Assembly: GCA_037442925.1 (NCBI GenBank)
Contig: JBBIPG010000019.1
Coordinates: forward strand, 1-33,356
From: Candidatus Fraserbacteria bacterium
GTDB lineage: Bacteria; Bipolaricaulota; Bipolaricaulia; RBG-16-55-9
Direction of reading: 5' to 3'
DNA: 33,356 nt
Shown: piece by piece, positions 10,245 to 28,368 of the stretch
How the letters are laid out: each line of letters begins with the position of its first letter
Numbering within the stretch: the stretch's first letter is position 1
Made by a program: the position numbers and the translations under genes
Notes under the pieces: generated by a model
The model's database searches: none
Seen by the model: only the letters and a program-made list of their open reading frames with translations
What the model was told of the DNA's origin: nothing

Positions 10245-10257
10245 CTCTCTATCCTCC

Positions 10258-11166: not shown

Positions 11167-11172
11167 CTGCGT

Positions 11173-11832: not shown

Positions 11833-11851
11833 TGCGATCCTCTCTGCGGCC

Positions 11852-11915: not shown

Positions 11916-11925
11916 GAGCCGTGCG

Positions 11926-13212
11926 CTAAAACGTGGCGAGTGCATAGTACGTGAGCCCCAATGCCGGAGGAATGAACAGGGCTGCCAGTTGGAGTTGCCC
12001 TACGGAGAGACCCAGCTCGTCCTTATAACCCGCTATAGACAGGATCAGAAAGAGGCTGATGAAGGCAATCCCCAAGGCTGTTCGCTTGGGCGCCTGCTCG
12101 GGAGATTCCAAGTAATGCTGCGGCTCCCGTCTCCGGTCGAGAAAGGGCCACAAGACAAAGAGGGCGAGAATCGCCCCCGGCAAGAGCACCCCGCCAATGT
12201 TCTCCGGGTTGATCACCGTGCCGGGCAGATGGGCTTCCATCCAGCCGGGGATCAGTTTTAAGAGCCCGTAGACCCAGAGGAAGTACCAGTCGGGCTTGAC
12301 GGACGGTGTTCCAGGCTGGGGTGGACCATAGATCTCAACGGGGTGCGCGGGAAAGAAGGCTGCCAGAAAGAGTAGCCCTCCCGTGAGCAGCAGGAAGAGT
12401 TGCGCCATCAAGACTGCCTGATGCGGCCACAGTGGCACGCCGATGAGCTTGCCCGCTGGGGCGCGTCCGCGGTTCGCTGCGGGCTCGGTATGCTTCTGCT
12501 CGATCATGATGAGTAGATGCAGGCCGATCAGGCCGAGGAGCAAGAGGGGCAGGAGCATGACGTGGAGCGCGTGAAAACGAGGGATGCTGCCCGGTGCCGG
12601 GAATTTTCCGGCAAACATGAGATCTGCTAAGTACGGCCCAGCCCAGGGGATAGAGCGCGCAATCTCGTAGCCGATCTTGGTCGCCGTCACCGCAAACTGG
12701 TCGAAGGGCAAGACGTACCCGACAAAGGAGGCCACCACCGTCAGACCCAAAAGCAAAAGACCTACAACCCAGTTGATCTCGCGGGGGTTCTTGTAGGCTC
12801 CGGTGAAAAACACTCTCAGCATGTGCAGGACAATCGCGGCGATCATGACGTGAGCCGCCCAGTGATGGAGCTGGCGGATGACGAAGCCAAACGGAGCCCG
12901 GTCGATCTTCACCACAGACACATAGGCTGCGGGGGCGTGTCCCTCCTCGAACTCGACGTGCTGGGTTGATGGCTCGTACATAAGCGCCAGGAAGATCCCT
13001 GTAATGACGAGCAAGACGAAGCAGAAGAGGGCGATCTCTCCTAGGAAGAAAGTCGAGTGGACCGGAAAGGCCTTGCGCAAGAATTTCTCTCTCAGACGGG
13101 TAAGACGTAGCCTCTCCTCCCACCCACTAGCCTCTGCTTGGGCAGTAGGCTTTGCTGTGGGCGGCTCCAGCGCACTTGCTGCTGTCTTGGGGTTCGACAT
13201 CTTTTCGTCCAT
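11926..13212 (-). CDS. fbcB: Cytochrome b of Rieske/cytb complex, copy A (unsplit, Thermus FbcB-like)
   Basis: RKAFPVHSTFFLGEI, heme-ligand His pairs (HHWAAH...LH and LHV...LH), PREINW, GY.LP.D, Qo motif KPDWY. Confidence 0.93.
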   Translation of the reverse strand: MDEKMSNPKTAASALEPPTAKPTAQAEASGWEERLRLTRLREKFLRKAFPVHSTFFLGEIALFCFVLLVITGIFLALMYEPSTQHVEFEEGHAPAAYVSVVKIDRAPFGFVIRQLHHWAAHVMIAAIVLHMLRVFFTGAYKNPREINWVVGLLLLGLTVVASFVGYVLPFDQFAVTATKIGYEIARSIPWAGPYLADLMFAGKFPAPGSIPRFHALHVMLLPLLLLGLIGLHLLIMIEQKHTEPAANRGRAPAGKLIGVPLWPHQAVLMAQLFLLLTGGLLFLAAFFPAHPVEIYGPPQPGTPSVKPDWYFLWVYGLLKLIPGWMEAHLPGTVINPENIGGVLLPGAILALFVLWPFLDRRREPQHYLESPEQAPKRTALGIAFISLFLILSIAGYKDELGLSVGQLQLAALFIPPALGLTYYALATF

Positions 13213-13219
13213 GGCTCCG

Positions 13220-13798
13220 TTAGGGGCCCACCCTTTCCGCGAAGCTACCGGCAGCCTCTAGCTCCCCTTGAGTATTGAAGCGGAGGGGGAGCTGAGGCAG
13301 CGGTCGAGGAGGCGGTCCTGAAACTACAATGGCTCCTCGCCCGGGATCATAGACTCCGGCATGGCAGGGGCAGAAGATTGCCTCCGAGCGCAGCTCGCTG
13401 AGCACCGTGCAGCCGAGGTGCGTGCAGATGGCGCTGTAGGCTACGAAACCCTCCGCCGTCCACTCCCGTCGCGTCGGCGACTCCAGCCTCGCTGGCTCCA
13501 GGCGTACGACGATCACGGTGTTCTCCTCAACGTCTTCCTTGCCCGCGGGCAGGGCGAGTGCGGCCTCGCTCACCCGAAGAGCGTCTCGGGTGATGCGCTC
13601 TCCCCGGCGCGGCCCCACGGCAAAGACCAACTTATCTCCTTCACCAATCATCTTGGTCGTCTGCTGCACCACCAGCGGCTTGAGCGAATTGACAGCCGAC
13701 AGCATCGCGAGCAGAGCACTTCCGGCCCCCAGACCCATAAGCCAGTGGAAGACCCGCCGGCGCGACAGACCTTTGGCCTTTGATTCTTCTCTTCTCAT
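13220..13798 (-). CDS. fbcF: Rieske [2Fe-2S] protein, copy A
   Basis: TAT-like LSRRRVF plus TM segment. CTHLGC, CPCHAGVYD and GPPPRPL. Confidence 0.95.
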   Translation of the reverse strand: MRREESKAKGLSRRRVFHWLMGLGAGSALLAMLSAVNSLKPLVVQQTTKMIGEGDKLVFAVGPRRGERITRDALRVSEAALALPAGKEDVEENTVIVVRLEPARLESPTRREWTAEGFVAYSAICTHLGCTVLSELRSEAIFCPCHAGVYDPGRGAIVVSGPPPRPLPQLPLRFNTQGELEAAGSFAERVGP

Positions 13799-13810
13799 CT
13801 CGTTAGCACC

Positions 13811-14173
13811 TCACCACGGAATACCGTCATCGCGGTCTTGGGTGACGGCCTCATGGGTGATGAAGTAACGACGGTAAAGCACGAGCATCAGCGCCAGACC
13901 CAGGAAGAGCACTCCCGCATCCAGTGCGAGCTGTCGCGGCGGAGCTGTGGCCAACTCCCCCATGAACTTGATGGCCCAGGCCATCACGAGAGCAGCCAAG
14001 CCCAGCGCCGCAATCAGCGACCAAACCGGTTCTGGTGGCCGCTCCGTCGGACCGGGCACCAGCTCTCGCCCCTCCAGCCAGACCGATAAGACCCCCTGCA
14101 CGCCGTAGAGCGCCAGAAGGAATCCCCAAGCGATCAGCGCGATCTGGTACGCGTCTAGGTGCGTAGGGATCAT
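13811..14173 (-). CDS. fbcX: FbcX-like 3-TM accessory subunit, copy A
   Basis: LYG..G..S.WLEG.EL.PG and C-terminal Y+++F...E......PW resemble Thermus FbcX as recalled, and it sits directly before the Rieske gene. Confidence 0.65.
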   Translation of the reverse strand: MIPTHLDAYQIALIAWGFLLALYGVQGVLSVWLEGRELVPGPTERPPEPVWSLIAALGLAALVMAWAIKFMGELATAPPRQLALDAGVLFLGLALMLVLYRRYFITHEAVTQDRDDGIPW

Positions 14174-14793
14174 GGCACCACCTCCTCAAAGAGATCGAGC
14201 ATGGTTGCGGAGCGGCTCTTGTGATAGCTCGTGAAATCGTCAGAATCGGAGTGAGCCAGAAGCACTCGCATCTTGCCAGGGACAATCGCTTGGTCGAAAG
14301 GGTCACCGGTGTCGAGCTTGCGTCGGAGCTCCACCACCGTGCCCTGCTCGCTTTCAGCACCTGCACTCTCTAAGATATCGTCACGTCCCCCCAGCTTCGC
14401 ATCTGCCGTATGCGAGACGAAATCGTTGGCGAAGTTGTCCTGCAGGTGTAGCCCTTCTGAATCCACATAAGTGATCAGGATGTCCGCGCCCTTCATCATG
14501 GGGCCTTCACCTCCGAGGCCTACAGCCACCCAGCCGCGATCGGGGCACCTCAGCCCGATGAAGATCTCATCTTCCACGATCGTCCAGTGGAGTTCCATGC
14601 CGGTCGCTTCATCGCGGTAGCTCTTGGTGTACTCACCCTCTTCAATGATCCCGTCGAGAGTGGCCGCGCGGAGCCCCAAGCGACGGGCCTGATCGGTCTC
14701 CCAGTTTCTGCGGAAGTCCAGGGTCAAAAGGGCAGCAATCCCGACAGCCAAGGCTAGTGCTATCAAGGGTAGCAACAGCCCGTTTCGCTGCAT
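14170..14793 (-). CDS. Membrane-anchored DOMON-domain protein, probable Met/His heme-b cytochrome
   Basis: N-terminal TM. GWVAVG, M.GADI, R.LDTGD.FD, ..AH.......YH are the DOMON core with candidate Met and His ligands. Confidence 0.85.
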   Translation of the reverse strand: MQRNGLLLPLIALALAVGIAALLTLDFRRNWETDQARRLGLRAATLDGIIEEGEYTKSYRDEATGMELHWTIVEDEIFIGLRCPDRGWVAVGLGGEGPMMKGADILITYVDSEGLHLQDNFANDFVSHTADAKLGGRDDILESAGAESEQGTVVELRRKLDTGDPFDQAIVPGKMRVLLAHSDSDDFTSYHKSRSATMLDLFEEVVP

Positions 14794-15641
14794 CAGGACT
14801 CCTTCTCCAGTGCTTCCACAGCCGCTTGTGCCAGCGCAAGCACCTGCTCAAGCTGGCTCTCTACCTGCTCGAGCCGGAAGGTGTGCCACCCCTCTTGGAT
14901 GGCGCGCATCCCCGCCTCTGCTTGAGCCAGGAGTTGCGCGGCAGATCCGGTGTCCACTTCATCCTGCTTGGCCGAGATCAGTTTCCGGATGAGCTCAAGC
15001 TGTTCCTGGGCTTGTCTTATGAGCGTGAGCAAGAAGCGGGCCTTCAGCGGCTCATCCGGTCGGATGCCCAGGCGCTCGTTATGGCAGGCCGTACACGTTG
15101 CTGCCAGCTCCTGTGGGCTTAGAATGGCGACGGCCATCGCCCCATGGCAGGTGACGCAGTTGGGTCCACGCCCCGTCTCCTGAAGTTGCTGATAGTGGAC
15201 GCTCTGCCGGAAGTAGGCCAGCTCCGCCGTGTGGCAGCGCCCGCAGGTCTCCGGGACCTTGGTGAAATAAAGAGGGCTTTGCGGGTCACGCGAGGGTCGA
15301 AGTCCCTGGTGAGCACGCTCCAGCTGGGCTTGGGTTGGGTCACCTCCGTGGCACTCGGAGCAGGAGACTCCCTGTTGCGCATGGAGGGAATCCTCCCAGT
15401 CGGCAAACGTATGCCCGATGAACGTCCGAGGCAGAGTGCGGTGGCACGTGACACAAGCACTTTCAGCCAGTTCTCCCGGTGGAGGCTTCGCCGTCTCAGT
15501 TCCGGGCGTGGGCACAACTGGAGCCTCGCCCGGCACCCGTTGGGGCGGAAGGCGGAAGCTGTAGAGAGTCAGCCCCACGGCCACCACCAGAAGAAGTGCC
15601 AAGCCCAGCAATCCATACCGTCGCAGCGTGCGCGTCTTCAT
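14793..15641 (-). CDS. Membrane-anchored pentaheme cytochrome c with C-terminal helical domain
   Basis: CVTCH, CSECH, CGRCH, CVTCH, CTACH. N-terminal TM and an Ala/Gln/Glu-rich helical tail. Confidence 0.9.
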   Translation of the reverse strand: MKTRTLRRYGLLGLALLLVVAVGLTLYSFRLPPQRVPGEAPVVPTPGTETAKPPPGELAESACVTCHRTLPRTFIGHTFADWEDSLHAQQGVSCSECHGGDPTQAQLERAHQGLRPSRDPQSPLYFTKVPETCGRCHTAELAYFRQSVHYQQLQETGRGPNCVTCHGAMAVAILSPQELAATCTACHNERLGIRPDEPLKARFLLTLIRQAQEQLELIRKLISAKQDEVDTGSAAQLLAQAEAGMRAIQEGWHTFRLEQVESQLEQVLALAQAAVEALEKES

Positions 15642-15683
15642 CCTCGAACTCCGATCTGCTATTAGGCCGTGCTCGCTAAGGCG

Positions 15684-15720
15684 CGGGCCGAGTGAGTTGC
15701 TCAGCCACCCACTCGACCCG
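15684..15720 (-). other. Intra-operon GC-rich stem-loop
   Basis: Minus-strand RNA CGGGUCGAGUGGGUGGC-UGA-GCAACUCACUCGGCCCG gives a 17-bp stem with two G-U pairs and one mismatch. No U-tract. Confidence 0.6.
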
Positions 15721-15746
15721 CCATTCCACGGGGCTTGTTGCCCTCG

Positions 15747-16253: not shown

Positions 16254-16299
16254 GAGGTTTCACCTCCTTCCTTGAATACAACTAGTTCTCCATCTTAAG

Positions 16300-16340
16300 A
16301 TTCTATGATCTGAATCAAAATATGCAATGACCGATATCAG
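16300..16340 (-). promoter_or_regulatory. Two Crp/Fnr-like boxes and a TAGAAT in the divergent intergenic region
   Basis: ATGATctgaATCAA at 16305-16318, ATGACcgatATCAG at 16327-16340 (22 bp apart), ATTCTA at 16300-16305. Confidence 0.6.
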
Positions 16341-16362
16341 GCCACAATTGGGATCGTAGCCC

Positions 16363-16391
16363 TTCACAACCACGAGTCCGTGCACTATAAT
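16363..16391 (+). promoter_or_regulatory. Sigma70-type promoter for the 16415 cytochrome
   Basis: TTCACA (16363-16368), 17 bp spacer, TATAAT (16386-16391). Confidence 0.7.
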
Positions 16392-16414
16392 AAGACTAAA
16401 AGGGGTGATAATAG

Positions 16415-17524: not shown

Positions 17525-17547
17525 CGAGCACATAACAAGACAAATAC

Positions 17548-17580
17548 GGGAGGGAAGCACGTAGGACATGCTTCCCTCTC
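17548..17580. terminator. Hairpin between convergent genes
   Basis: GGGAGGGAAGCACGT-agg-ACATGCTTCCCTCTC, 13 of 15 Watson-Crick pairs. Confidence 0.7.
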
Positions 17581-17608
17581 TCTCACATTCTCTCTTGCAT
17601 TTGCTGGC

Positions 17609-18496
17609 TCATTTGCCGAGCCAGGGAGCAACGAACGGATCCACTCCTAACGCCTTCAAGAAGATGAGTACCAACAAGAGGATTCCAGTCCCCAGCGCAG
17701 TAAACCCGAAGGTGCGGGCCAGCTGTATCGCCCACGCCGGAGGAGGGGAAGCCCGGCGCTCCTCCAGCCTCCCTTCCCTCTGGAGCCTCTCGAATTCCGC
17801 CGGATGCTTGCTGCGGAACTCCCGCTCCGAGAGCACCCCTGTGAAGATGACTATATCAATTGGGAAACTCTCCGGGCGCAGATGCGTGTTGAAGAAGTGG
17901 ATGGCGAAGATGAAGCCCACGGCCAAAAGCGCCTCCTCACTGTGGACGATGAAGGCCGCATTGAGCAGCCAGCCGGGCAGGATGAGAGTGGCATAGTCCT
18001 TGAACCAGAGGAGGAGCCCGCTGGAGCCGATGATGGCTACTCCCCAGAAGACGGCCCAGTAATCGAACTTCTCGAAGTAGCTCCAGCGGTCGAAGGTCGG
18101 GGGCGTGGGTCGAAGCCCTACGTACCAGCCCAACTGCTGAAAGAAGTGCTTAAAATCGAGTCCGCGAGGGATCATGGAGTTGGGTCCAAAGACCCACTCC
18201 CGCTGGAAGAGCCACCATCCTTGCACGCGTTTCTCGCGGTATCGTCTCCAAAGGCTTATGAGGTGAACGAAAAAGTACCCAAATGTCACCAGAGCGAAGA
18301 AGCGATGGAAACCTCCGGCGGCTGGCACACCTCCCAAGAACCCTGCTAATACCTTGGCCCAGGAGGTCTCCGCATACTTGAGGATCAGTCCGGTAAGAGC
18401 TAATCCCAAAAAGCTGATCACTACGCTCACATGGAGGCCGATCTCGAACGGTCCGAAGCGCCGGTAGTAGATCTCTTGCTCATTATTGGGCTTCAT
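17609..18496 (-). CDS. FdnI/HydC-type di-heme cytochrome b (CbcL b-domain-like)
   Basis: RRF....GLH....SF.GLA.TGL.LKY, FHR, RW.Y.EKFDYWAVFWG, IVHSEEALLA.GFIF.IHFFNTHLRP..FP.D. Confidence 0.88.
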   Translation of the reverse strand: MKPNNEQEIYYRRFGPFEIGLHVSVVISFLGLALTGLILKYAETSWAKVLAGFLGGVPAAGGFHRFFALVTFGYFFVHLISLWRRYREKRVQGWWLFQREWVFGPNSMIPRGLDFKHFFQQLGWYVGLRPTPPTFDRWSYFEKFDYWAVFWGVAIIGSSGLLLWFKDYATLILPGWLLNAAFIVHSEEALLAVGFIFAIHFFNTHLRPESFPIDIVIFTGVLSEREFRSKHPAEFERLQREGRLEERRASPPPAWAIQLARTFGFTALGTGILLLVLIFLKALGVDPFVAPWLGK

Positions 18497-19718
18497 GGTT
18501 CTCCTCCTCCGTGCTTGTTTTGGGAGCAGCTTTCCGCTTGCCTCTCCGTGGCAGGAGCTTCAGGAGGGGAGCGACGGCTGGCACGACATAGCCACGCACT
18601 GCCCAAAGCAGCGTATGCGTTCCGAAGACGCTGAAGACGCCAAAGAGCAGGGCCGTCATGAAAAGCCAGATCCCATAGAGGGCGGGAGGAGCTGTTTGAG
18701 AGTCGGAGGGGCGCACATGGGGTAGGAAAGCGACGAAGTTCGCGTTGGCATAAGAGTGGCACGCTTGACACGTCGAGACGATGTTGGCAGCCGATAACGT
18801 TGACTCGGGGTCCTCAGGCGGGAGGATCTGGTGGTTCCCGTGGCAATCCGCGCACGTGGCCACGCCTGCATAGCCCAGAGTCGTCACTTGGCCGTGATAG
18901 CTCTCGCGATAGGTGTCAAACGCCTCGGGATGGCAGTCGGCACAGGCGAGCACCGAGGCAAGCTGAAAGGCCTTCTCTCGGGGTGGCTGGATGGCGTGGG
19001 TTTGATGGCAGTTGGTGCAGACCGGACCCTGCTCCAAAGGGAGCTTCCCGTGCACGCTCGCTTGGTATTCGTTGAGGACTCCGAGGTGGCAGCGGCCGCA
19101 GGTCTCGGGGATGCGGCTTGGGTAGAGTCGGGAGCGGGGATCGGAGTTAGGAAGAGTATCATGGGCTCCGTGACAGTCGGCGCAGGTGGCAGCCACCAAG
19201 AGACCGCTGCGTAATAGACCCTGACCGTGGACGCTCTCCAGGTACTGTTGATAGGCTTCGGGGACCGGGATCTGGTGAGCCACGGCCAGTTTCTCGTTGC
19301 CATGACAGCCTCCGCAGGTCTGGGGCAAGTTGAAAGGGAAGACCCGAGAGTTCGGATCGCTTGTAGGGCGGATGTCGTGGCCACCGTGGCAAGCGGCGCA
19401 GTTGGGGACATCGGGGACGCCTTGCAGAAGTCCGCGGCCATGGACGCTCTCCCAATAGGCTTGGGTCTTGGGATGACAAGTGGCGCAGATTTGGGGATCC
19501 GTAGGTTGTTCATGCGGAATCTGTTTCGCTCCTACATGACAGATTGTGCAGGACAAGCTCTTATGAACGGAAGACTGGAGCGGTTCAAGCGTGAGATCCC
19601 GGTGGCAGAGCCGGCAGCTCTCGGCTTCCTGCGGATTCTGCGCCGCCGGAGCAAGCCAGGCGATCAAGAAACCAACCGCCGCGATCAAAACCCCCAGCCA
19701 TCTCCATCCCTGTCTCAT
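18483..19718 (-). CDS. Undecaheme cytochrome c with C-terminal TM helix (CbcL c-domain-like)
   Basis: Eleven CxxCH with recurring Y..S.HG spacers and C-terminal FGTHTLLW. Overlaps the cytochrome b gene. Confidence 0.92.
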   Translation of the reverse strand: MRQGWRWLGVLIAAVGFLIAWLAPAAQNPQEAESCRLCHRDLTLEPLQSSVHKSLSCTICHVGAKQIPHEQPTDPQICATCHPKTQAYWESVHGRGLLQGVPDVPNCAACHGGHDIRPTSDPNSRVFPFNLPQTCGGCHGNEKLAVAHQIPVPEAYQQYLESVHGQGLLRSGLLVAATCADCHGAHDTLPNSDPRSRLYPSRIPETCGRCHLGVLNEYQASVHGKLPLEQGPVCTNCHQTHAIQPPREKAFQLASVLACADCHPEAFDTYRESYHGQVTTLGYAGVATCADCHGNHQILPPEDPESTLSAANIVSTCQACHSYANANFVAFLPHVRPSDSQTAPPALYGIWLFMTALLFGVFSVFGTHTLLWAVRGYVVPAVAPLLKLLPRRGKRKAAPKTSTEEENHEAQ

Positions 19719-19736
19719 GGAGCATCACCCACATCC

Positions 19737-19800
19737 ATTCTAACACCTCTATCAGCTCACCAATATGAGCTTACTCAGGAAGGCAGATGATCTACATCAT
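19737..19800 (-). promoter_or_regulatory. Internal promoter for the CbcL-like pair: TAGAAT plus two Crp/Fnr-like boxes
   Basis: ATTCTA at 19737-19742. ATGAGcttaCTCAG at 19765-19778 and ATGATctacATCAT at 19787-19800. Confidence 0.7.
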
Positions 19801-21617
19801 CAAAACGTGATGTGGCACTTCAAACAACCCTCGAAATTGGCAGCTCCCTCTGGTGGCACGTCCTTGCGGTGGCACGTCCCACAGAACTCGTGCCACAGGG
19901 TGGGGACGGCAGTCTCGTAGTTCATATAATCGAGATGATCCATCTTCTCAACGTTGGTGTGGCACAGCGTGCAGTTAAAGCCGAGATTGACGTGCAGCTC
20001 GTGTGAGAACTTCACCTTCTCAGAACTCGTAGGGATCTGGGCCGAGTGGCACTGCAGGCAGTCTTGCAGGCTGGCTCCCTCCAGTTGCGCTCGGGCCGGA
20101 TGGCAGTCGGTGCAGCGATTCACCTGGGCACCATGTTGGGGGTCTTGATAGCCCACCTCGTCATGACAGATAGCACACTCGAGACCGCGCCGGACAACGT
20201 GTGTCTCATGTTGAAACGTCCACTTGTCGATCTCTTTCGCAATCGTCTCGGCGTCGAGATGACAAGCGGTGCATCGAGTCTCATAAGGTACTTGGGCCCA
20301 GGGGGGCTCCAGCTCCAGCTCGATGCCCACCTCAAGAAGGGCGTTCTTCAGATCTTCGTATGCCTTAAGCAGAACCGCGGAAGCATAGCCAGGGTTGTGG
20401 ACGCCGTGGGCGTTCGCGACGAAGTCGATGTTCTCTTGAGCCTGAAGAGCGAGCTCGTTGGGCGGGATGAGAGCTTGCACTTTCTGGTTTAGGGATTGGA
20501 CAGCTTCCAGACGGGTGGAGAGCACCTGCTCCCAAGTCTGGTAGATCTTGAAAAACGGAGCGCCGTGACAGGACATGCAACTCACCTCGCTGGCCAGCTT
20601 GCGGCCTTCTTTGGAGATGAGGTGGCAGCTCTCGCAGCTGACGCCCGCCAAGTACATCGCCGCAGGCAAGGGTTCGACATCTTTGCCTCCAATGCCTATG
20701 TAGAGATCGCGTTGCGGAGAGTGGCTACCCCCGACGTGACACGTCTCACAGCGGGTGGCCACTGCTTCCAGTGCCTTGGGGATCTGGTGTTGGATCTCGA
20801 TGTGGCAGCTTAAGCACTCGACTTTGTGCTCTGTGACGTGCATGCGGTGGAGAAATTCTGTTTCATTGATGCGCGCCAGGCGTGTGGGCTCGTTGTGGCA
20901 AGTCAGGCAGCGGTCTGGGGGGACCTCGCCTGCGCCCTGTACCACGTTGGCGTGGCAGAGGGTGCACTCCATACCGAGCCGCTTGACTTCCGCGTGGTCG
21001 AAGCTCAGGCCCGCCGTGGTGATGATCTGTTCCGGCGTCTCGTGGCAGAGCGTGCAGCGCGCCGTATCCTCGTTGAGTCTAGTCTCTTTGAAGTGGCAGA
21101 GGAAGCAGCTGCTCTCGGTCACGGCGATGTGCTGCCCCTGGACAATCTGGCTGTGACAGGAGGTACAGCGGAGTTTCTTCTCGCGGCGCATCTCGGTAAG
21201 ATGCGGCCGGTGGTCGAAGAGCACATTCTCGAAGAGCTCACGCCCGACGAGCAATCGTTGCTCGTGGCAGCCCGGCCTAAGGCAGCTTTCGTCGGGCACC
21301 TCGGCCCAGGGGTTCGTGCCATAGGTGCCAGTAAAGTAGCTCACGACCATGGAGAGCGCTTCGTACTTCTTGCGGAACTCCGCACTAATCCCCGGAGGAA
21401 TGTGGCACTCGACGCAGGCCACGTCACGGTGTGTGGAGGTCTCCCAGGACTCATAGTAGGGTTTCATGAAGTGGCAGGTGCCACAGAAGGCTGGCTGGGA
21501 GCTGATTTCGACACCCACGAAGAGCGCGGCCACACCCAAAGGCAGCGCGATGAGGGCCAGCCACAGCAGACGTAGCAGCCAGGGATAAGTCCGCCATCGG
21601 CGCAAGATCTGCATCAT
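19800..21617 (-). CDS. Large multiheme cytochrome c (18 CxxCH plus one CX4CH) with NapC/NirT-like N-terminus
   Basis: N-terminal TM, then SQPAFCGTCH.M.PYYESW..STH..V.CVECH. Atypical CLRPGCH. Repeated F.H..H spacers. Confidence 0.93.
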   Translation of the reverse strand: MMQILRRWRTYPWLLRLLWLALIALPLGVAALFVGVEISSQPAFCGTCHFMKPYYESWETSTHRDVACVECHIPPGISAEFRKKYEALSMVVSYFTGTYGTNPWAEVPDESCLRPGCHEQRLLVGRELFENVLFDHRPHLTEMRREKKLRCTSCHSQIVQGQHIAVTESSCFLCHFKETRLNEDTARCTLCHETPEQIITTAGLSFDHAEVKRLGMECTLCHANVVQGAGEVPPDRCLTCHNEPTRLARINETEFLHRMHVTEHKVECLSCHIEIQHQIPKALEAVATRCETCHVGGSHSPQRDLYIGIGGKDVEPLPAAMYLAGVSCESCHLISKEGRKLASEVSCMSCHGAPFFKIYQTWEQVLSTRLEAVQSLNQKVQALIPPNELALQAQENIDFVANAHGVHNPGYASAVLLKAYEDLKNALLEVGIELELEPPWAQVPYETRCTACHLDAETIAKEIDKWTFQHETHVVRRGLECAICHDEVGYQDPQHGAQVNRCTDCHPARAQLEGASLQDCLQCHSAQIPTSSEKVKFSHELHVNLGFNCTLCHTNVEKMDHLDYMNYETAVPTLWHEFCGTCHRKDVPPEGAANFEGCLKCHITF

Positions 21618-21620
21618 CTC

Positions 21621-23105
21621 TCACCCCCGACGCCGCTCACGCCGATAGAGCAGGACGACCAATAGCGTCAGCGCGAGATATCCCCAGATGAGCGCCAGCC
21701 CCACAAGTCGCACGCCGCGCACGCCCAAGAGGCCGTGCAGTTGGCTGCGTACTTCCTCAGCGATTGAGCGCGCCCGACGCGTCAGCTCCTCGACCTTTGT
21801 CACATCCAGCGAGTGCTGCACCGGCAGCGCCTCAATGAGATAGGTGCGCGCCTCGATCATGCGCGAGCGATACGGCGCGATGTCATATGCCTGAGCCTCA
21901 GCCGCTTGGAGCGCCGCCTCCGCTTCCTCTAACGCCTGTCGAGCCCCCGCCAGCATGACCTCAAGCTTCTCCACATCCTTGGAATCCGGGAGATGACAGA
22001 GGTTGCAAACTCCCTCCATCGAGCGCCCCATGCCCACGGACGCCACCTCGTGATTACCATGGCAGCCAGCGCATTCAGCGATGCTTTGTTCTTCCATCGC
22101 TTTCTTGTGCACGCTGGCATCGAAGTAGCGCCGCTCATTGATATGGCATGTCCCACAGACTTTGGTGATGTCCTCGATGCCAGGGGGAATGGCCCCGTGG
22201 GTGCCATGACACGTGGCACAACTGGGAGCCTTCGTATTCCCCTGCTCAAGGAGCGCGACTCCGTGGACACCTCTCTGGAAGGCCTCGACTTCGTCGGCAG
22301 GCAGACCGTAAGGTTCCATAAGGGCAGGGTCACTGTGGCAGCGGCCGCACGTTTCGGGAACCCGTGCGACGTAGACGGAGCTGCGGGGATCAAGAGCCAG
22401 CAAGATCCGATGGGCCGTATGACAATCGGTGCAGACGGCGACGTTGGTATCTCCCTCTTTCCACCGCTGACCATGCTGGGATGTCAAGTATTCCGCGAAC
22501 TGATCGGTGCGCAGTCCGTAGGGTTTCATCTTTAGGGGATCGGCGTGGCAAGAGCCGCATAGTTGGGGAATCTGGTCTCGTGAAGGAATCCCCCGAAAAC
22601 CGAGCGCCCGGTCATGCGCCCTCTCCCGATCGAGTGTGGCTGGATCGCCCCCATGGCAAGCGACACAATCGACGTCGAAGAGGGCATGGACACTCTCAAG
22701 GTAGTCGACCTTGATCTCACTATGGCAGACGAGACAACTTGGCCCCCCTGTCTCTTGGTCAGCGCCAACTCGGACCAACAAGATTACCAAGGCAACCAAC
22801 AGCAGCCCCAGTAGCCGAATGGACGGACGTCGAGGTCGGCGGGAGCGCCTAAACATGGGGACAGCAAACAAGAGCACGAAGAAGGCTACGAAAATAAAGA
22901 GCGCCTGATTGGGGGTCAACTTCTCAAGAACGTAATAAAACGGAAGGAAGTACCACGGAGGCGAGGCAGCGACCGAACTGAGAGGATCGGCGGGTGGCCC
23001 CAGTGTAGGCACCCACAGGATCGCCAGGGTAAACAGTAGACCCAACGCCAGCAAGATGACGATCAGTCCATCGAGCAGGAGATCAGCGTATGTCCTCTTG
23101 GGCAT
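21621..23105 (-). CDS. Rieske/cytb subunit IV fused to a nonaheme cytochrome c with C-terminal TM
   Basis: N-terminus LGPPADP....PPWYFLPFY with three TMs, followed by nine CxxCH. RBS GGAGGT supports a start at 23105. Confidence 0.88.
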   Translation of the reverse strand: MPKRTYADLLLDGLIVILLALGLLFTLAILWVPTLGPPADPLSSVAASPPWYFLPFYYVLEKLTPNQALFIFVAFFVLLFAVPMFRRSRRPRRPSIRLLGLLLVALVILLVRVGADQETGGPSCLVCHSEIKVDYLESVHALFDVDCVACHGGDPATLDRERAHDRALGFRGIPSRDQIPQLCGSCHADPLKMKPYGLRTDQFAEYLTSQHGQRWKEGDTNVAVCTDCHTAHRILLALDPRSSVYVARVPETCGRCHSDPALMEPYGLPADEVEAFQRGVHGVALLEQGNTKAPSCATCHGTHGAIPPGIEDITKVCGTCHINERRYFDASVHKKAMEEQSIAECAGCHGNHEVASVGMGRSMEGVCNLCHLPDSKDVEKLEVMLAGARQALEEAEAALQAAEAQAYDIAPYRSRMIEARTYLIEALPVQHSLDVTKVEELTRRARSIAEEVRSQLHGLLGVRGVRLVGLALIWGYLALTLLVVLLYRRERRRG

Positions 23106-23772
23106 TGTTCGATACCTCCACGGGTTTGGCTGGCACATCTGGCTTTTGGGAGACGGGCGCAAAGAGGCCCTGGCGGGCAACGAAATAGAGATGGACGCCG
23201 ATCAAGAGAGTGGTCAACCAAGGCAAGAGTCCTACATGGAAGACATAGAAGCGCAGGAGCGCCCCCTCGCCCAGCTCCACGCCACCCCAAAGGAAGTCAA
23301 GAAAGGGTTTTCCAATGAGAGGTATCCGCTCGATGGCGCGACGTGCAGCATCCGTGGTCCAGAAAGCCTGTTGATCCCAGGGCAAGAGCAGCCCCGTGAA
23401 CCCGAAGGCCATCACAAGCAGAAGCAGTATGACGCCGATGGCCCAGTTGAGTTCTCGCTCGCGGTATGCGCCATACAGCCCGATCCGCAGCATGTGCAAC
23501 AAGGTCACGAGAATCAGCAAGTCCGCTCCCCAGCGATGCAGGCCACGCACGAGCCAGCCCAGTTGCGCTGTGCCCATGAGGTACTGAATGCTTGGGCGGG
23601 CTTCTGCTACTGTGGGCTGATAGTAGACCATGAGCAGGATGCCCGTGAGGATCTCGACCAAGAACAGGAACACCACCGCGCCACCCAGCAAGTGGCCCAG
23701 GTGGAATTGAGGCGGCAGAGGCAGCTCCAACTCCCGGCGGATGAGTCCGCGCGTGCGTTCCCAAAGAGCCAC
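23083..23772 (-). CDS. Cytochrome b6-type (split, N-terminal) subunit of the third Rieske/cytb complex
   Basis: TGILL..YYQP, RGLHRWGA...LH, RELNW, FTG.LLPWDQ, RFYVFH...H. GTG start directly after the Rieske stop. Confidence 0.92.
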   Translation of the reverse strand: MALWERTRGLIRRELELPLPPQFHLGHLLGGAVVFLFLVEILTGILLMVYYQPTVAEARPSIQYLMGTAQLGWLVRGLHRWGADLLILVTLLHMLRIGLYGAYRERELNWAIGVILLLLVMAFGFTGLLLPWDQQAFWTTDAARRAIERIPLIGKPFLDFLWGGVELGEGALLRFYVFHVGLLPWLTTLLIGVHLYFVARQGLFAPVSQKPDVPAKPVEVSNNAQEDIR

Positions 23773-23774
23773 GG

Positions 23775-24236
23775 TTATCCTTCCCTCCCGATGAAGATCT
23801 CCTCGCCTACGACCTCGACGCGCTGGCGGGGTAAAGGCCAACGCGGCAGGCCGGCCACGACGTTGCCGCTGACGTCGAAGAGTCCACCGTGGCAGGGGCA
23901 GCTTAGCAAACTGCGCTTCTCATCCCAGTTGACGATGCAACCTTTGTGAGTGCAAACGGCCGAAAGAGCGACAAAGCCATGCGGAAGGCGCAGGACCCAA
24001 ACGGGCTGTCCCTCAAGCAGGATTTGCTTTCCCTGACCCACGGCAAAATCGCGCACGGAGCCGACTCGAACACGCAGACGGCCAGGGTTGAACGCCTGCC
24101 GCTCCGGCGGGAAGATGAAGGCGATCACTCCACCCAGAAGGCTCAAGAAGCCCACGATCAGCGAGCCCTGAAGCAACCTGCTTAAGAAAGCTCGGCGCTC
24201 ACTGCTGGCTCCCTCTGGGGCTCTTGAGCTACGCAT
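23775..24236 (-). CDS. Rieske [2Fe-2S] protein, copy C
   Basis: ERRAFL TAT motif plus TM. CTHKGC and CPCHGGLFD. RBS AAGAGGGG favours a start at 24236. Confidence 0.93.
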   Translation of the reverse strand: MRSSRAPEGASSERRAFLSRLLQGSLIVGFLSLLGGVIAFIFPPERQAFNPGRLRVRVGSVRDFAVGQGKQILLEGQPVWVLRLPHGFVALSAVCTHKGCIVNWDEKRSLLSCPCHGGLFDVSGNVVAGLPRWPLPRQRVEVVGEEIFIGREG

Positions 24237-24269
24237 GCCTGTACCCCTCTTCTTACGTCCTGTCATCCC

Positions 24270-24356
24270 ATTCTAAAGCCCATCTCATATGAAACTCCAT
24301 GATGGAGATCAGCGGCAACATTGATCTCACTCACGAAGTATGCTGACTAGAGTCAT
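24270..24356 (-). promoter_or_regulatory. Promoter of complex C operon: TAGAAT plus three Crp/Fnr-like boxes at 22-bp period
   Basis: ATTCTA at 24270-24275. ATGATggagATCAG at 24299-24312, TTGATctcaCTCAC at 24321-24334, CTGACtagaGTCAT at 24343-24356. Confidence 0.7.
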
Positions 24357-24452
24357 TGATCTCAAGCGGGGAGAAGATGTATCGCTTAAGCTCAGCAAGC
24401 GAGACGGGCAGTGTCCCCATAGGAGAAATCTATCTCGAGCGCTTGAAGATGG

Positions 24453-24461
24453 TGTTATAAT
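24453..24461 (+). promoter_or_regulatory. Extended -10 promoter (TGnTATAAT) for the DsbB-DOMON operon
   Basis: TGTTATAAT, followed by RBS GGAGGAGGTGA and ATG at 24495. Confidence 0.6.
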
Positions 24462-24494
24462 AGTGGTCATGATCTTGGCAGGAGGAGGTGAGCG

Positions 24495-25637
24495 ATGCTC
24501 CAGACTCTATTCGCAGAATATGGTCTATACTTTGCTTGGCTTGTCTCTCTTGTCGCCACCGGCGGCAGCCTCTACTTCAGCGAAGTGATGGGGTTCATCC
24601 CGTGCGCACTCTGCTGGTATCAACGCATCTTCATGTACCCCCTTGTAATCCTTTTGGGGATGGCGAGCTTCCGCAGTGACCGCAGGATCGCGGGTTACGT
24701 CCTGCCGCTGAGCGTCATCGGCTTGAGCATCGCGTTTTATCATTACTTTCTTGTGGAACAAAAACTCTTGGGGGAATTGGAGTCGCCCCTATGTCAGGTG
24801 GGCGTGCCCTGCGACACCAAATACATCGAATGGCTCGGCTTCATCACCATTCCCTTCCTGTCGCTGGTGGCCTTTACCCTGATCACAATTTTGATGGTCT
24901 ATGTCCGCCGCGCCTTGCGAGCGGAACCTGAGACGTGGGTATCTCCGGCTTCCGAGGTGAAAGCTCCAACCGAAGTGAAAGAACCCGTATTTAAGAGTTC
25001 GATCAGATTGCCCGCTGTGGCTCTGCTCTTGGCCGCCGCAGGCACTTTGACACTGGGGTTCGATCTCAGCCGGAAGTATCCCGGCGACCCACCCACCACA
25101 TGGTCGGTGGAGCGTCTGGTAGAGGTTCCAGAAGCCTTGCAGATAGATGGTGTGCTGCAAGAAGGTGAGTACCAGAACAGGCTGAGTTCCTTCAGAATCA
25201 AGATGGATCTCTATTGGAGCGTCCGTGAGGATCGGGTCTATTTCGGGCTGAAGGCCCCTACCCAGGGCTGGGTTGCACTGGGGTTCAACAGCGCAGTCCC
25301 CTTGATGAGAGGAGCAGACATCATCATCGGCTATGTCAAGGATGGCCAACTCGCTCTGGAGGATAGCTACGCGAACTCACGCATCGGCCATCAGACCGAT
25401 ATTCAACTGGGTGGTCGCGATGACATTCTGGATAGAGCGAGCACTCAGGATGAAGGGGGAACGATCATCGAATTCTCTCGACGTTTGGATACCGGCGATA
25501 CGTTTGACATGCCCATTCGTCCGGCCGAGAAACTGATGATATTGCTTGCTTACGGGCAGCGAGATGATCTCATCAGTTACCACGATCGGATGAGAGCGCT
25601 CATGGCGAATATTGAATTGGTTCCGGAAGGCCGTTGA
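24495..25637 (+). CDS. DsbB/BdbC-type disulfide-bond formation protein fused to a DOMON domain
   Basis: GSLYFSEV.G..PCALCWYQRI.MYP, second Cys pair CQVGVPC, GFITIPFLS; then a linker, a TM, and DOMON (GWVALG, MRGADI, LDTGD.FD, SYH). Confidence 0.9.
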   Translation: MLQTLFAEYGLYFAWLVSLVATGGSLYFSEVMGFIPCALCWYQRIFMYPLVILLGMASFRSDRRIAGYVLPLSVIGLSIAFYHYFLVEQKLLGELESPLCQVGVPCDTKYIEWLGFITIPFLSLVAFTLITILMVYVRRALRAEPETWVSPASEVKAPTEVKEPVFKSSIRLPAVALLLAAAGTLTLGFDLSRKYPGDPPTTWSVERLVEVPEALQIDGVLQEGEYQNRLSSFRIKMDLYWSVREDRVYFGLKAPTQGWVALGFNSAVPLMRGADIIIGYVKDGQLALEDSYANSRIGHQTDIQLGGRDDILDRASTQDEGGTIIEFSRRLDTGDTFDMPIRPAEKLMILLAYGQRDDLISYHDRMRALMANIELVPEGR

Positions 25638-25999
25638 TGCTGACGCATTTGGAAGCCTACGAGATTGGGCTCGTGGCCTGGGTGGCGCTGCTGGCGGTCT
25701 GGGGGCTCCAGGGGTTGATCGCGGCCTATGTGGAAGACCCCAAGCCCACAGCGGCAGAGCGCAGACCCGTGAACGAATCCTGGAGCGCTCTCTTGGTGAT
25801 TCTTGCTTTGATTGGGCTGGAGATCTTCTGGGCCGTGCTCTTTGTAAGAGGAATCTTCGAAGGAGCGTCATCGAACACGTTGGCCTTATATGGGGTCTTG
25901 CTCACCTTCACTTTGGCAGCTGCATTGATCGTCTATCGGCGCGCCTTCGTGCCGGATGAGACTCTACTTCAAGAGCGCGATGAGGGAGTTCCCTGGTGA
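25637..25999 (+). CDS. fbcX: FbcX-like 3-TM accessory subunit, copy B
   Basis: Clear paralog of 13811-14173 (THL.AY.I.L.AW...YRR.F...E...Q.RD.G.PW). Confidence 0.7.
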   Translation: MLTHLEAYEIGLVAWVALLAVWGLQGLIAAYVEDPKPTAAERRPVNESWSALLVILALIGLEIFWAVLFVRGIFEGASSNTLALYGVLLTFTLAAALIVYRRAFVPDETLLQERDEGVPW

Positions 26000-26016
26000 C
26001 TAAGAAGGGAAAATCG

Positions 26017-26679
26017 ATGTCGACGGGTGACAAGCCCAGAAAGCCAAACACGGGAGAGCAACGAAGGTTTTCGCGTCGAGCGCTCGTGCAATGGGTGCTT
26101 GGCGTCGGAGCCGCCTTCGCTATGGGAGCCATGTCCATCGCGGCTCTCTCCATTCGACCCACGAAGCGGAATGCCAAACAGCAGGAGCCGGTAGCAGCAG
26201 GGGACCGCCTGGTCTTCGTGATCGGAGCCAACAAAGGGCAACCCATTCGCCGTGACAGCATCCCGGTGAACGAAGCCGTGCTCGCCTTCCCTGAGGGAAA
26301 GGATGGCAATCCAGACAACTTGATCCTGCTCTGCCATCTCGATCCCGTGAGCCTCGCACCGCCGACCATCCTCGCATGGACGGCAGAGGGTCTTGTGGCC
26401 TATAGTGCTATCTGTACCCATCTGGGCTGTACGGCCTCTACTCTTCAGAGGATGGAAGGGACGGACTTCCCCCAGCTGCTGTGCCCCTGTCACAGCGGCG
26501 TCTTTGACCCGCAGAGCGGTGCCATCGTCAAAGCCGGACCACCACCGCGTCCTCTGCCACAACTGCCCATCCAGATCGATAACCAGGGAGAGTTGATCGC
26601 TGCGGGCTGGTTCGAAGAGCCCCCTGGAGTCGTTCCCAAAGGGGAGCTACGGCGATGGCGAGAGAAGAACAAGAACTGA
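26017..26679 (+). CDS. fbcF: Rieske [2Fe-2S] protein, copy B
   Basis: FSRRAL plus TM. CTHLGC, CPCHSGVFD, GPPPRPLPQLP. Alternative GTG start at 25996. Confidence 0.94.
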   Translation: MSTGDKPRKPNTGEQRRFSRRALVQWVLGVGAAFAMGAMSIAALSIRPTKRNAKQQEPVAAGDRLVFVIGANKGQPIRRDSIPVNEAVLAFPEGKDGNPDNLILLCHLDPVSLAPPTILAWTAEGLVAYSAICTHLGCTASTLQRMEGTDFPQLLCPCHSGVFDPQSGAIVKAGPPPRPLPQLPIQIDNQGELIAAGWFEEPPGVVPKGELRRWREKNKN

Positions 26680-28004
26680 AGGCTCCCCAGGCAGAGTCCG
26701 CACCTGCCCCGAGTTGGTGGGACGAGCGCCTGGATTGGAGACGTTTTAAAGCCAAGTACCTGCGCAAAGCCTTCCCGGTGCATCCCGCGTTCTTTCTGGG
26801 TGAGATCGCACTCTTTAGTTTTGTTATATTGGTTCTCACGGGAATTCTGCTGGCATTGACCTACGAGCCCTCTGCACAGCTTGTCGAGCTAGAGGGCAAT
26901 CAAGTTCCAGCAGCCTACGCCAGCGTCGTCGAGAACGATGGCACTCCTCTGGGGCTCTTCGTGCGACAAGTGCATCACTGGGCTGCGCATGTGATGATTG
27001 CTGCCGCCATCTTGCATCTCTTGAGGATCTTCTTCACCGGTCTTTACAAGAAACCTCGTGAGATCAACTGGCTCGTGGGTCTTCTGCTTTTGGTCCTCGC
27101 TGTGTTTGCCTCCTTCTCCGGCTATCTCTTGCCCTTCGATGCGTTTTCCGTCACCGCCACGGGGATCGGCTATCACATCGCACGCTCTGTCCCGTGGATC
27201 GGGCCGCAGTTGGCTGATTTCATCTTTGCCGGAAGATTCCCGGCACCGGGGACGATCCCGCGCTTCTATGCCTATCACGTGATCCTCATCCCCTTGTTGA
27301 TCATGGGGTTGATTACCTTGCACCTCTGGATTCTGCTCAAGCAGCACCATAGCCAGGCGCCTTCTGCGCGGATCTATGTGGGCAACCGCAAGATTCTGGG
27401 TGTGCCGCTCTGGCCCCATCAAGCTCTGCTGATGACCGTGCTCTTCTTGGTATTATTGGGGATCTTGTTCGCGGTGGCCGGTCTTTTCCCAGTTCACCCG
27501 GTGGCATACTACGGCCCACCGGAGCCGGCCACACCCGTCGTCAAGCCCGACTGGTATTGGCTCTGGCTCTACGGGGCTCTCAAGCTGGTCCCCACCTGGT
27601 TCGACTTTGAGGCCTTCGGAACGACGATCAATCCAGAGAACCTGGGGGGAGTCCTTCTCCCGTTGCTGCTGGTGACCCTGCTCGTGCTCTTGCCCTTCGT
27701 GGATCGATCCCGCGAGCCGGTGCACTTTCTGGAGCCGTCGAGCGCACATCCCATACGAACAGCGCTGGGCATAGGAACTCTCACGTTTCTCCTGATGTTG
27801 ATGTTCGCAGCCTACAATGAGGAGCTAAGCTTATCCCTCGAAGTGCTTCGTGTAGGGGTTCTGCTTGTGCCGCTTCTGACTGGAGCTGTTACGTACTGGA
27901 GTCTCCGTGGACGCCACGCCAAAGTCTCGTTGCCCGGAAGAGAGAACCCGCTCGAACCTACGCAGTCGCAAGACCTGACCCAGATCATTGACAAATCCGA
28001 GTGA
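26655..28004 (+). CDS. fbcB: Cytochrome b of Rieske/cytb complex, copy B
   Basis: RKAFPVHPAFFLGEI, HHWAAH, PREINW, KPDWY. Paralog of 11926-13212. Confidence 0.93.
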   Translation: MAREEQELKAPQAESAPAPSWWDERLDWRRFKAKYLRKAFPVHPAFFLGEIALFSFVILVLTGILLALTYEPSAQLVELEGNQVPAAYASVVENDGTPLGLFVRQVHHWAAHVMIAAAILHLLRIFFTGLYKKPREINWLVGLLLLVLAVFASFSGYLLPFDAFSVTATGIGYHIARSVPWIGPQLADFIFAGRFPAPGTIPRFYAYHVILIPLLIMGLITLHLWILLKQHHSQAPSARIYVGNRKILGVPLWPHQALLMTVLFLVLLGILFAVAGLFPVHPVAYYGPPEPATPVVKPDWYWLWLYGALKLVPTWFDFEAFGTTINPENLGGVLLPLLLVTLLVLLPFVDRSREPVHFLEPSSAHPIRTALGIGTLTFLLMLMFAAYNEELSLSLEVLRVGVLLVPLLTGAVTYWSLRGRHAKVSLPGRENPLEPTQSQDLTQIIDKSE

Positions 28005-28017
28005 TGTAAGTTATACT
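27975..28017 (+). promoter_or_regulatory. Copper-operon promoter with a Crp/Fnr-like box, embedded in the 3' end of cytochrome b copy B
   Basis: CTGACccagATCAT at 27975-27988, TTGACA at 27988-27993, 18 bp spacer, TATACT at 28012-28017. Confidence 0.7.
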
Positions 28018-28041
28018 CCGAAACAAGGAGTGGATATCTTG

Positions 28042-28368
28042 ATGATCCTGCGAGTTGCTGCGGTTGCGGTAGCAGCCCTCCTTATGGTCAGTGGCGTGCC
28101 TCAACATGGAGGGCCGCTGGAATGCATGTCTTCTGGGCCGTTCGCGTCCGCGGATTCACAGGGTCAACACTCCACCAATCCTTCGACCGGCTGCAGCTCC
28201 CAGACGCATGCCACGCCCAGCTGGTGGGCGAATTGCTCTGGCTGCGGGACTACTCTGCTGGTAGATGACCTCTCCTCGCCTGAGGAGGCATTCAGGAGTA
28301 CTTGGCTGCTGGTCGTGGCTTTGAATCCCTTCCAAGCACCCTCCCCCCATTGGCGCCCTCCTGCCTAA
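28042..28368 (+). CDS. Putative DUF2946/CruR/CutF-like upstream ORF (signal peptide, CxxC, C-terminal RPP)
   Basis: RBS AAGGAG at 28025-28030 (TTG 28039 or ATG 28042). MILRVAAVAVAALLMVSG...ANCSGC...PSPHWRPPA*. Confidence 0.6.
   Translation: MILRVAAVAVAALLMVSGVPQHGGPLECMSSGPFASADSQGQHSTNPSTGCSSQTHATPSWWANCSGCGTTLLVDDLSSPEEAFRSTWLLVVALNPFQAPSPHWRPPA

Follow-up and report, generated by a model that had tools for sequence, protein, structure and literature searches.

Where do the electrons of disulfide bond formation go when the enzyme that collects them is joined, in one polypeptide, to a likely subunit of a quinol-oxidising complex? The question is raised by a gene at 24495..25637 in a 33,356-nucleotide stretch of Candidatus Fraserbacteria bacterium (contig JBBIPG010000019.1 of assembly GCA_037442925.1; the whole stretch is referred to as the window), in which a DsbB domain of the BdbC type is followed by a DOMON domain and, downstream, by genes for a Rieske protein and cytochrome b. 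In the reading favoured here, to which a probability of roughly 0.45 is given, the electrons of DsbB exit through the fused extracytoplasmic redox domain, join those of the Rieske centre, and leave towards a terminal oxidase. The gene and its parts are:

24495..25637, plus strand: DsbB-DOMON fusion gene, 380 amino acids (open reading frame, ORF; Pfam DsbB and DOMON; NF002849 above cut-off; frame present in other assemblies and contigs).
24495..24914, plus strand: BdbC-type DsbB domain, residues 1-140, with four transmembrane (TM) helices, C37-x-x-C40, R44 and C100/C106 (Pfam, NCBIfam, alignment with E. coli DsbB, ratio of nonsynonymous to synonymous substitution rates, dN/dS).
24915..25004, plus strand: putative cytoplasmic linker, residues 141-170 (alignment with the DsbB of a relative, G006, and start of the DOMON homology).
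25005..25070, plus strand: fifth TM helix, the DOMON protein's own N-terminal membrane anchor (helix 2-25 of the AlphaFold2 model, hydropathy, alignment with the anchors of stand-alone DOMON proteins).
25107..25634, plus strand: predicted extracytoplasmic DOMON beta-sandwich with the candidate cofactor ligands H299, H363 and M237 (AlphaFold2 model, Foldseek, conservation).

The ORF starts with ATG, preceded at 5 nucleotides by the Shine-Dalgarno sequence GGAGGAGGTG, and is one open frame throughout; a promoter and terminator scan of the upstream region (24267-24494) found none. In Pfam, DsbB (PF02600) matches residues 13-136 (E 1e-12, 49.1 bits against a cut-off of 22.1, profile positions 7-147 of 148) and DOMON (PF03351) matches residues 237-354 (E 5.8e-21, 75.4 bits against 32.7). 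The N-terminal half also passes the cut-off of the NCBIfam model NF002849, 'disulfide oxidoreductase' of the BdbC type (158.9 bits, cut-off 124). The whole fusion has four cysteines, C37 and C40 in PCALCWYQR, which also holds R44, and C100 and C106 in CQVGVPC, and three histidines (H83, H299, and H363). The four cysteines and R44 are conserved in the DsbB rows of the whole-fusion alignment (A1); of this alignment, which misplaced the N-terminal halves of the DOMON-only rows on DsbB columns, only the DsbB rows and the C-terminal modules of the small protein X (described below) were used. Against PDB sequences the sole match for the whole protein is a weak one, to E. coli DsbB (E 0.18), in which PCALCWYQR aligns to PCVLCIYER, and R44 presumably takes the position of the quinone-side Arg48 of that enzyme. 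The fourth TM helix is followed by a basic RRALR, a Pro/Glu-rich linker, the fifth hydrophobic helix (~172-192), and the DOMON. The C-terminus of DsbB faces the cytoplasm, so that the fifth helix would bring the DOMON to the outer face, where the DsbB cysteine loops also lie. Judged from its sequence, the product is one polypeptide with two apparently working halves, a BdbC-type DsbB and a membrane-anchored, outward DOMON. The original prediction, made from the letters of this stretch, had described an intact BdbC/DsbB domain with both cysteine motifs, continuing in frame through a TM helix into a DOMON, and both parts of this description are borne out.

The frame recurs in other material. Assemblies from four different sources (NCBI, Logan, ENA, and JGI) contain four more complete fusions (P0001-P0004, 81-99% identity). 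In a same-genus genome (G001, 79% identity) the fusion is broken solely by a run of N in the assembly, and an apparent frameshift there, seen as a split match, was rejected on this ground. A 27-kb contig of run X4, from a different study, spans 24421-25700 with 117 substitutions and zero indels within the fusion ORF, its two indels lying outside (at 24450 and, of 3 nucleotides, at 25644), and the linker is bridged at 24898-25048 by 151-nucleotide contigs of runs X2 and X3. These run sequences are contigs and not raw reads, and a further run, X1, may be the source of the window. The frame, also in the span singled out in the original prediction (about 24900-25100), is on this evidence no artefact of assembly. 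Between the source genome (G000) and G001, dN/dS is 0.065 for the DsbB half, at dS ~1, and 0.15 for TM5 and the DOMON up to residue 318; for the linker, which is variable between the two, it is 0.11 with dS saturated. On these ratios, both halves of the fusion are under purifying selection. Codon 165 is GTA in the window and GTG in the X2, X3, and X4 contigs (A>G at 24989), and an in-frame GTG stands at codon 161, 13 nucleotides past GAGGTG; a separate DOMON product may be made from an internal start near codons 161-165 in the X2-X4 strains.

In the 2.07-Mb, 94.4%-complete source assembly, the fusion is the sole PF02600 match, and VKOR has no match. One Thioredoxin_4/DSBA gene, BdbD-like, is present on another contig (C52), not adjacent to the fusion. 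The assembly also contains two genes for haem-copper oxidases, and of its four DOMON matches two fall inside the window.

The rest of the operon, and a paralogous operon in the same window, consist of the following features:

25634..25999, plus strand: X, a small protein of 120-121 amino acids with three TM helices (Pfam and NCBIfam matches below cut-off, alignment A3, fusion to DOMON in other lineages).
25996..26679, plus strand: Rieske iron-sulfur protein, 227 amino acids, with CTHLGC and CPCH boxes (Pfam; NCBIfam QcrA, positions 117-314, E 2.7e-30, below cut-off).
26655..28004, plus strand: long unsplit cytochrome b, 449 amino acids, QcrB-like (Pfam; NF050120, 304 bits against a cut-off of 500).
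11926..15641, minus strand: the paralogous operon (Pfam, paralogy search, neighbourhoods), with the five genes below.
14793-15641, minus strand: multihaem cytochrome c, upstream of the DOMON of this operon.
14170-14793, minus strand: stand-alone DOMON, paralogue of the fusion DOMON (Pfam).
13811-14173, minus strand: paralogue of X, with a weak QcrA match.
13220-13798, minus strand: Rieske protein.
11926-13212, minus strand: cytochrome b.

The fusion TGA overlaps the ATG of X (TGATG at 25635-25639), the stop of X overlaps the GTG of the Rieske gene (GTGA at 25996-25999), and the Rieske and cytochrome b genes share a 25-nucleotide overlap, in agreement with the translational coupling that had been proposed. 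The paralogy claimed for the two DOMON domains likewise holds, with 41% identity (E 1.8e-45) to the minus-strand copy at 14170..14793. The operon is classed as bc-type by its Rieske protein with CxHxGC and CxCH boxes and its cytochrome b with N- and C-terminal domains, and no CxxCH protein, the mark of a c-type cytochrome, is encoded within it (24495-28004).

In the gene orders qcrCAB of Actinobacteria and fbcCXFB of Thermus, the cytochrome c subunit stands first. The window operon has the same order (acceptor subunit, small TM protein or N-terminal TM part of QcrA, Rieske protein, long cytochrome b), with the cytochrome c of QcrC/FbcC replaced by a DOMON that is fused to DsbB, and with the QcrA and QcrB cut-offs not reached. 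On this comparison the DOMON is assigned to the cytochrome c or c1 slot of the operon. X is presumably in the position of Thermus FbcX, a gene name found in no paper of the literature searched. In hydropathy plots X has three hydrophobic helices, and its Pfam matches, QcrA_N (E 0.0035) and DUF7318 (E 1.9e-4, 21.8 bits against a cut-off of 27, at 25766-25978), are both below cut-off. Both window copies of X give weak matches to the TM region at the N-terminus of actinobacterial QcrA (NF050121; E 0.0067 at positions 23-98, and 0.031), and the Rieske protein scores 106 bits against the 275 of the same model. By these scores X, the Rieske protein, and cytochrome b are classed as relatives of QcrA/QcrB and not as members; X and the Rieske protein together weakly resemble a split QcrA, and cytochrome b resembles QcrB, all below cut-off. 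Among 14 control genomes, DUF7318 matches Haloferax volcanii only. The DUF7318 match of X fits the kinship that is described, in the passages of PMC3509893 concerned, between the haloarchaeal Nar-linked cluster and the Actinobacteria/Thermus-Deinococcus type.

The association of DOMON and X with Rieske and cytochrome b is not confined to the window. The order DOMON-X-Rieske, with cytochrome b where the locus reaches that far, is found in 5 of the 18 loci retrieved, and likewise in 8 of the best 30 DOMON loci of the phylum (L116, L117, L119, L122, L123, L124, L125, and L128). The DOMON family as a whole occurs in 90 of 184 genomes of the phylum, its lower-scoring members in other settings (tandem pairs, or beside CopA). 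In four relatives (G024, G035, G017, and G011) DOMON and X form a single ORF of 323-336 residues, and this form is also seen in P0007, P0076, P0156, P0230, and P0244; such fusions argue that the two proteins sit together. With DsbB as a third kind of fusion partner, the DOMON-X fusions, and the kept gene order, the locus suggests that the DOMON is a true subunit of c1-less bacterial Rieske/cytochrome b complexes. In G014 a tandem double DOMON in one ORF of 394 residues (L037, 8233-9414) heads a Rieske/cytochrome b operon, and in G012, G023, and G020 (L042-L044) adjacent pairs of DOMON genes, in which one member has a TM helix at its C-terminus, occur without Rieske or cytochrome b. Because the DOMON half is part of the Rieske/cytochrome b operon, the one DsbB detected in the genome shares a polypeptide chain with what is likely a subunit of a complex that oxidises quinol. 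The physical tie between oxidative folding and quinol oxidation that the original prediction had envisaged thus stands for this genus, and finds no support as a general principle.

The AlphaFold2 model of TM5 and the DOMON (predicted local distance difference test score, pLDDT, 90.4; predicted template modelling score, pTM, 0.82) consists of one helix and eleven strands. In Foldseek it matches the cytochrome b domain of pyranose dehydrogenase (1.3e-4), the gamma subunit of ethylbenzene dehydrogenase (EBDH; 2.0e-4), NxrC (5.2e-4), and the cytochrome domains of cellobiose dehydrogenase (CDH; 2e-3 to 8e-3). The haem ligand pair in solved DOMON and cytochrome domains is Met/His or Met/Lys, methionine being a haem ligand in the CDH type. 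Among 24 diverse DOMON members, in which several Asp/Glu residues are invariant, the conservation of H299 and of H363 reaches at least 90%; H299, H363, and M237 are candidate ligands. Judged from its place in the operon, the relatives of its fold, and the two histidines, the DOMON probably carries haem b as cofactor. Giant proteins with many repeats of this DOMON family, not in the window, were also found (P0122-P0146), for example P0122 with 1378 residues and 7 matched stretches, P0125 with 2531 and 12, and P0146 with 4632 and 20. If the DOMON binds haem, these might be long extracellular electron conduits.

The origin of the fusion can be followed in a set of 41 genomes of the same class. 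Stand-alone DsbB proteins (142-152 residues, 57-70% identity) are present in ten of the other genomes, and dsbB directly follows a Thioredoxin_4 gene in five of the seven loci scanned (L029, L033, L036, L038, and L039; not L031 and L034; locus L048 was left out of this Pfam scan). In L031 the DsbB sits in a 326-residue ORF with an N-terminal extension. The ancestral arrangement is shown most clearly by G006, where one contig (L029) carries bdbD-dsbB followed by nifU and a rhodanese gene, and another (L028) carries a stand-alone DOMON, X, Rieske, cytochrome b, and then CopA, syntenic with the window as far as CopA. The source genome retains the synteny of bdbD, nifU, and rhodanese, with the dsbB slot filled by an unrelated ORF of 186 residues. 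This Gly/Ala-rich membrane ORF (P0121; contig C52, L006 917-1477, minus strand) has a start that overlaps the bdbD stop, and belongs to no Pfam or NCBIfam family.

The 150-residue DsbB of G006 aligns to 24498-24968, i.e. to about residue 158 of the fusion, and the start of the G006 DOMON, MFKNSIKLP, matches VFKSSIRLP from residue 165, so that codon 165 is the homologue of the G006 Met1. The join is therefore almost end to end, with ~6 new residues, and by this alignment the anchor helix of the DOMON protein became TM5 of the fusion. Since relatives keep bdbD-dsbB elsewhere and a stand-alone DOMON at the head of the same operon, the DOMON is the ancestral operon head and dsbB moved in. By these comparisons, dsbB left the ancestral bdbD-dsbB operon and landed just upstream of the DOMON gene, the two being joined by loss of the stop codon, and the fusion is a recent, genus-level one that arose by relocation.

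DsbB has acquired an outward haem domain elsewhere. In a fusion search, PF02600 occurs together with cytochrome c families in 99 of the 120 listed hits, a dominance that is partly due to the length window of the search (209-665 residues), which leaves out stand-alone DsbB. The hosts named by the sources are Anaerolineae, Caldilineaceae, Ardenticatenaceae, and Promineifilaceae (Chloroflexota). The sequences inspected share the plan of DsbB, acidic linker, fifth TM helix, and CxxCH domain. The layout is that of the window protein, with DsbB halves 42-53% identical to its own; the differences are that the outward domain is a CxxCH cytochrome c and that the gene stays beside dsbA/bdbD. It directly follows a Thioredoxin_4 gene in 6 of the 7 loci scanned, which marks these as true DsbA/DsbB pairs whose DsbB gained a haem domain. 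The DsbB-DOMON and DsbB-cytochrome c fusions have independent origins, since the window protein has its nearest DsbB relatives (60-70% identity) among stand-alone proteins. The simplest purpose suggested for the added outward haem domain in the Chloroflexota proteins is to accept the electrons. Other joined forms in the search include a HAM1/RdgB (PF01725)-DsbB fusion of 334 residues (P0050) and a 277-residue protein of Deinobacterium chartae (P0012) with a degenerate first DsbB-like half without CxxC, followed by an intact DsbB. What goes beyond the original prediction is that the DOMON, and not DsbB, is the ancestral operon head, that the DOMON is in the c1 slot, and that the fusion of DsbB to an outward haem domain recurs independently.

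In the proposed mechanism, the DsbB half would presumably re-oxidise the BdbD/DsbA-like protein encoded on the other contig, with the electrons from BdbD running via the two cysteine pairs to a DsbB-bound quinone. The next carrier after the bound quinone would be the cofactor of the tethered DOMON, probably haem b. The same cofactor would also take the electrons of the Rieske centre and would hand them on, for example to one of the two haem-copper oxidases. Disulfide formation would in this way drain into the high-potential end of the chain, independent of the redox state of the quinone pool, and the Chloroflexota DsbB-TM-cytochrome c fusions would work likewise. This reading draws on the intactness of the DsbB half (profiles above cut-offs, four cysteines and the arginine, low dN/dS, the sole DsbB, and a retained partner gene), on the relocation of dsbB, on the place of the DOMON in the complex, on its fold and conserved histidines, on the independent DsbB-cytochrome c fusions with the same layout, and on the precedent for a b-type protein in place of c1 in the relevant passages of PMC3509893 and PMC5461723. 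A broader statement, in which DsbB enzymes can pass electrons directly to a fused haem domain (the DOMON, or cytochrome c in Chloroflexota) and bypass the quinone pool, and in which the domain is here a c1 substitute, so that folding and quinol oxidation converge on one redox centre, is rather doubtful.

Several observations weigh against electron exit through the DOMON. Only two of the 41 genomes (G000 and G001) have both halves in a single frame. An exhaustive phmmer search, covering 1.84 billion representative clusters, returned 4975 hits with E no higher than 0.001, and among the best 150 only P0005 spans both halves (residues 1-316), the rest being DsbB or DOMON alone. Clustering at 90% identity leaves 5 clusters of the fusion, and at 50% a single representative. 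In all other relatives searched the homologues are split and unlinked, which outside one genus comes close to the pattern that the original prediction had itself named as refuting it, and with such a one-genus distribution the fusion could be a tolerated accident. No Rieske/cytochrome b gene was found around 71 DsbB loci of other bacteria (query P0048, flanks up to 7 kb a side, 29 of the loci reaching into the cytochrome c part by matched range), so that selection does not in general favour a link with a bc complex. The kept R44 makes it likely that ordinary quinone use is retained. As to the type of quinone, the source genome gave no MqnA/D match and a MenA-like match below cut-off. On the side of the cofactor, the best Foldseek match in the PDB is the non-haem DOMON of dopamine beta-hydroxylase (DBH; 5.6e-7), sugar-binding CBM9 modules match at 6e-4 to 2e-3, and M237 is kept in 19 of 21 close relatives but only in 16 of 24 members of the wider set. 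With matches so mixed, the fold alone does not choose between haem, sugar, and nothing.

A rival explanation, which we hold to be quite possible, is that the tether is neutral or a convenience. A rearrangement would have put dsbB before the DOMON gene and the stop codon would then have been lost, the halves keeping separate jobs with no electron flow between them; the most that would be gained is joint expression, or a supply of DsbB-made quinol close to the Qo site. The restriction to one genus, the linker that varies between G000 and G001, the almost end-to-end join with its few new residues, and the retention of R44 with all quinone-side features of DsbB agree with this, as does the fact that every other relative runs both functions unlinked. 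The fusion has nevertheless stayed intact over dS ~1 without reverting, each half being under purifying selection, although selection on each half by itself would give the same result, and the numerous independent fusions of DsbB to haem domains in Chloroflexota argue that the pairing is useful. An overlapping alternative takes the DOMON not as a redox carrier but as a sugar-, metal-, or envelope-binding or structural domain, without any meaning for electron transfer. The CBM9 and DBH domains are indeed among its top fold matches, the invariant Asp/Glu residues (D121, D133, E157, D166, and D169 of alignment A6) would suit a metal or sugar site, and a DOMON profile search of PDB sequences gave nothing significant, only NxrC at E 1.3. 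We consider it unlikely, as the DOMON is in the slot of a cytochrome c in an operon that encodes no other acceptor for the Rieske centre, its two nearly invariant histidines are of the haem-ligating kind, haem-b DOMON and EB_dh proteins match the fold, and b-type substitutes for c1 are described in parts of PMC3509893 and PMC5461723. The original prediction had also allowed that a tethered DsbB serves as a dedicated maturation factor and makes the Rieske disulfide on site. The Rieske protein does have the CTHLGC and CPCH boxes, the extra cysteine pair of which forms a stabilising disulfide in bc-type Rieske proteins, and three Rieske genes lie in the window. As the single DsbB detected in the genome, however, the protein must serve all substrates, and relatives with the same operon mature their Rieske protein with an unlinked DsbB. 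DsbB enzymes normally act through a DsbA/BdbD partner and oxidise it, not the substrates, and a BdbD-like gene is kept elsewhere in the genome. This variant thus found no specific support and is very unlikely.

The fusion can be set beside several known systems. With B. subtilis BdbC and E. coli DsbB it shares the four-TM thiol oxidase with CxxC in loop 1, a cysteine pair in loop 2, and an arginine four residues after the CxxC, as well as partnership with a DsbA/BdbD-like thioredoxin-fold protein; it differs in the added fifth TM helix and 190-residue extracytoplasmic DOMON, and in being encoded away from bdbD at the head of a respiratory operon. In the VKOR-thioredoxin fusions of cyanobacteria and actinobacteria, a membrane thiol oxidase is likewise joined via an extra TM helix to an extracytoplasmic redox partner, but this partner is on the upstream, substrate side and is not a downstream electron acceptor. 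In CYBDOM, the eukaryotic cytochrome b561-DOMON protein, a membrane redox module feeds an outward haem-b DOMON, without thiol chemistry. To our knowledge, all characterised DsbB and VKOR enzymes put their electrons into the quinone pool. Complexes without c1 are described in archaea: for the haloarchaeal Rieske/cytochrome b-Nar cluster, passages of PMC3509893 propose a b-type haem protein on the outer side as the counterpart of c1, and in those of PMC5461723 on the Sulfolobales cbsAB-soxNL genes, CbsA is proposed to replace c1 and CbsB is an uncharacterised hydrophobic protein. They resemble the window operon in lacking cytochrome c1, and differ in their archaeal host and in having no link to DsbB. 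At the sequence level no kinship of the DOMON with CbsA was seen, as PF03351 matches none of the 14 control genomes, S. acidocaldarius included, and the DOMON part has no NCBIfam hit at E up to 1.

A literature search, mostly without subscription journals, found no paper on a DsbB with a DOMON; among the matches listed, nothing concerns DsbB-cytochrome c fusions, for which the source here is database architectures only, or DOMON subunits of Rieske/cytochrome b complexes. What is new is the combination of a DsbB-family thiol oxidase with a fused partner and a c1-less Rieske/cytochrome b complex. If electron exit through the DOMON is true, a DsbB with its own outward haem domain would be a new way to keep disulfide formation going with a reduced or low-potential quinone pool. 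The reading can be tested directly on two natural architectures, DsbB-DOMON and DsbB-cytochrome c, and the electron exit is possibly general. If the tether is an accident, the gene is still a clean, dated case of gene relocation and end-to-end fusion of membrane proteins with compatible topology.

In general, the window has the character of a respiratory island, in which numerous multihaem cytochromes c accompany three Rieske/cytochrome b operons and a Mo-pterin/Fer4_11/NrfD set. This set lies directly downstream of the second operon with a long cytochrome b. The dense part of the island (6535-23180, and 23083-24266, minus strand) includes a b6-type operon with split Rieske and cytochrome b genes and a petD-like/multihaem cytochrome c fusion (21621-24266), several multihaem cytochromes c of up to 605 residues, and a cytochrome b561-like gene. 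Between cytochrome b and CopA, a small ORF (27988-28368, plus strand) without a Pfam family encodes one hydrophobic N-terminal helix and four cysteines, including CSGC, and an 11-of-12 sigma-70-like site is found at 27988-28017. The ORF is kept at the same place in G001 (46%) and G006 (40%), and has a paralogue on another contig of the source genome (C61).

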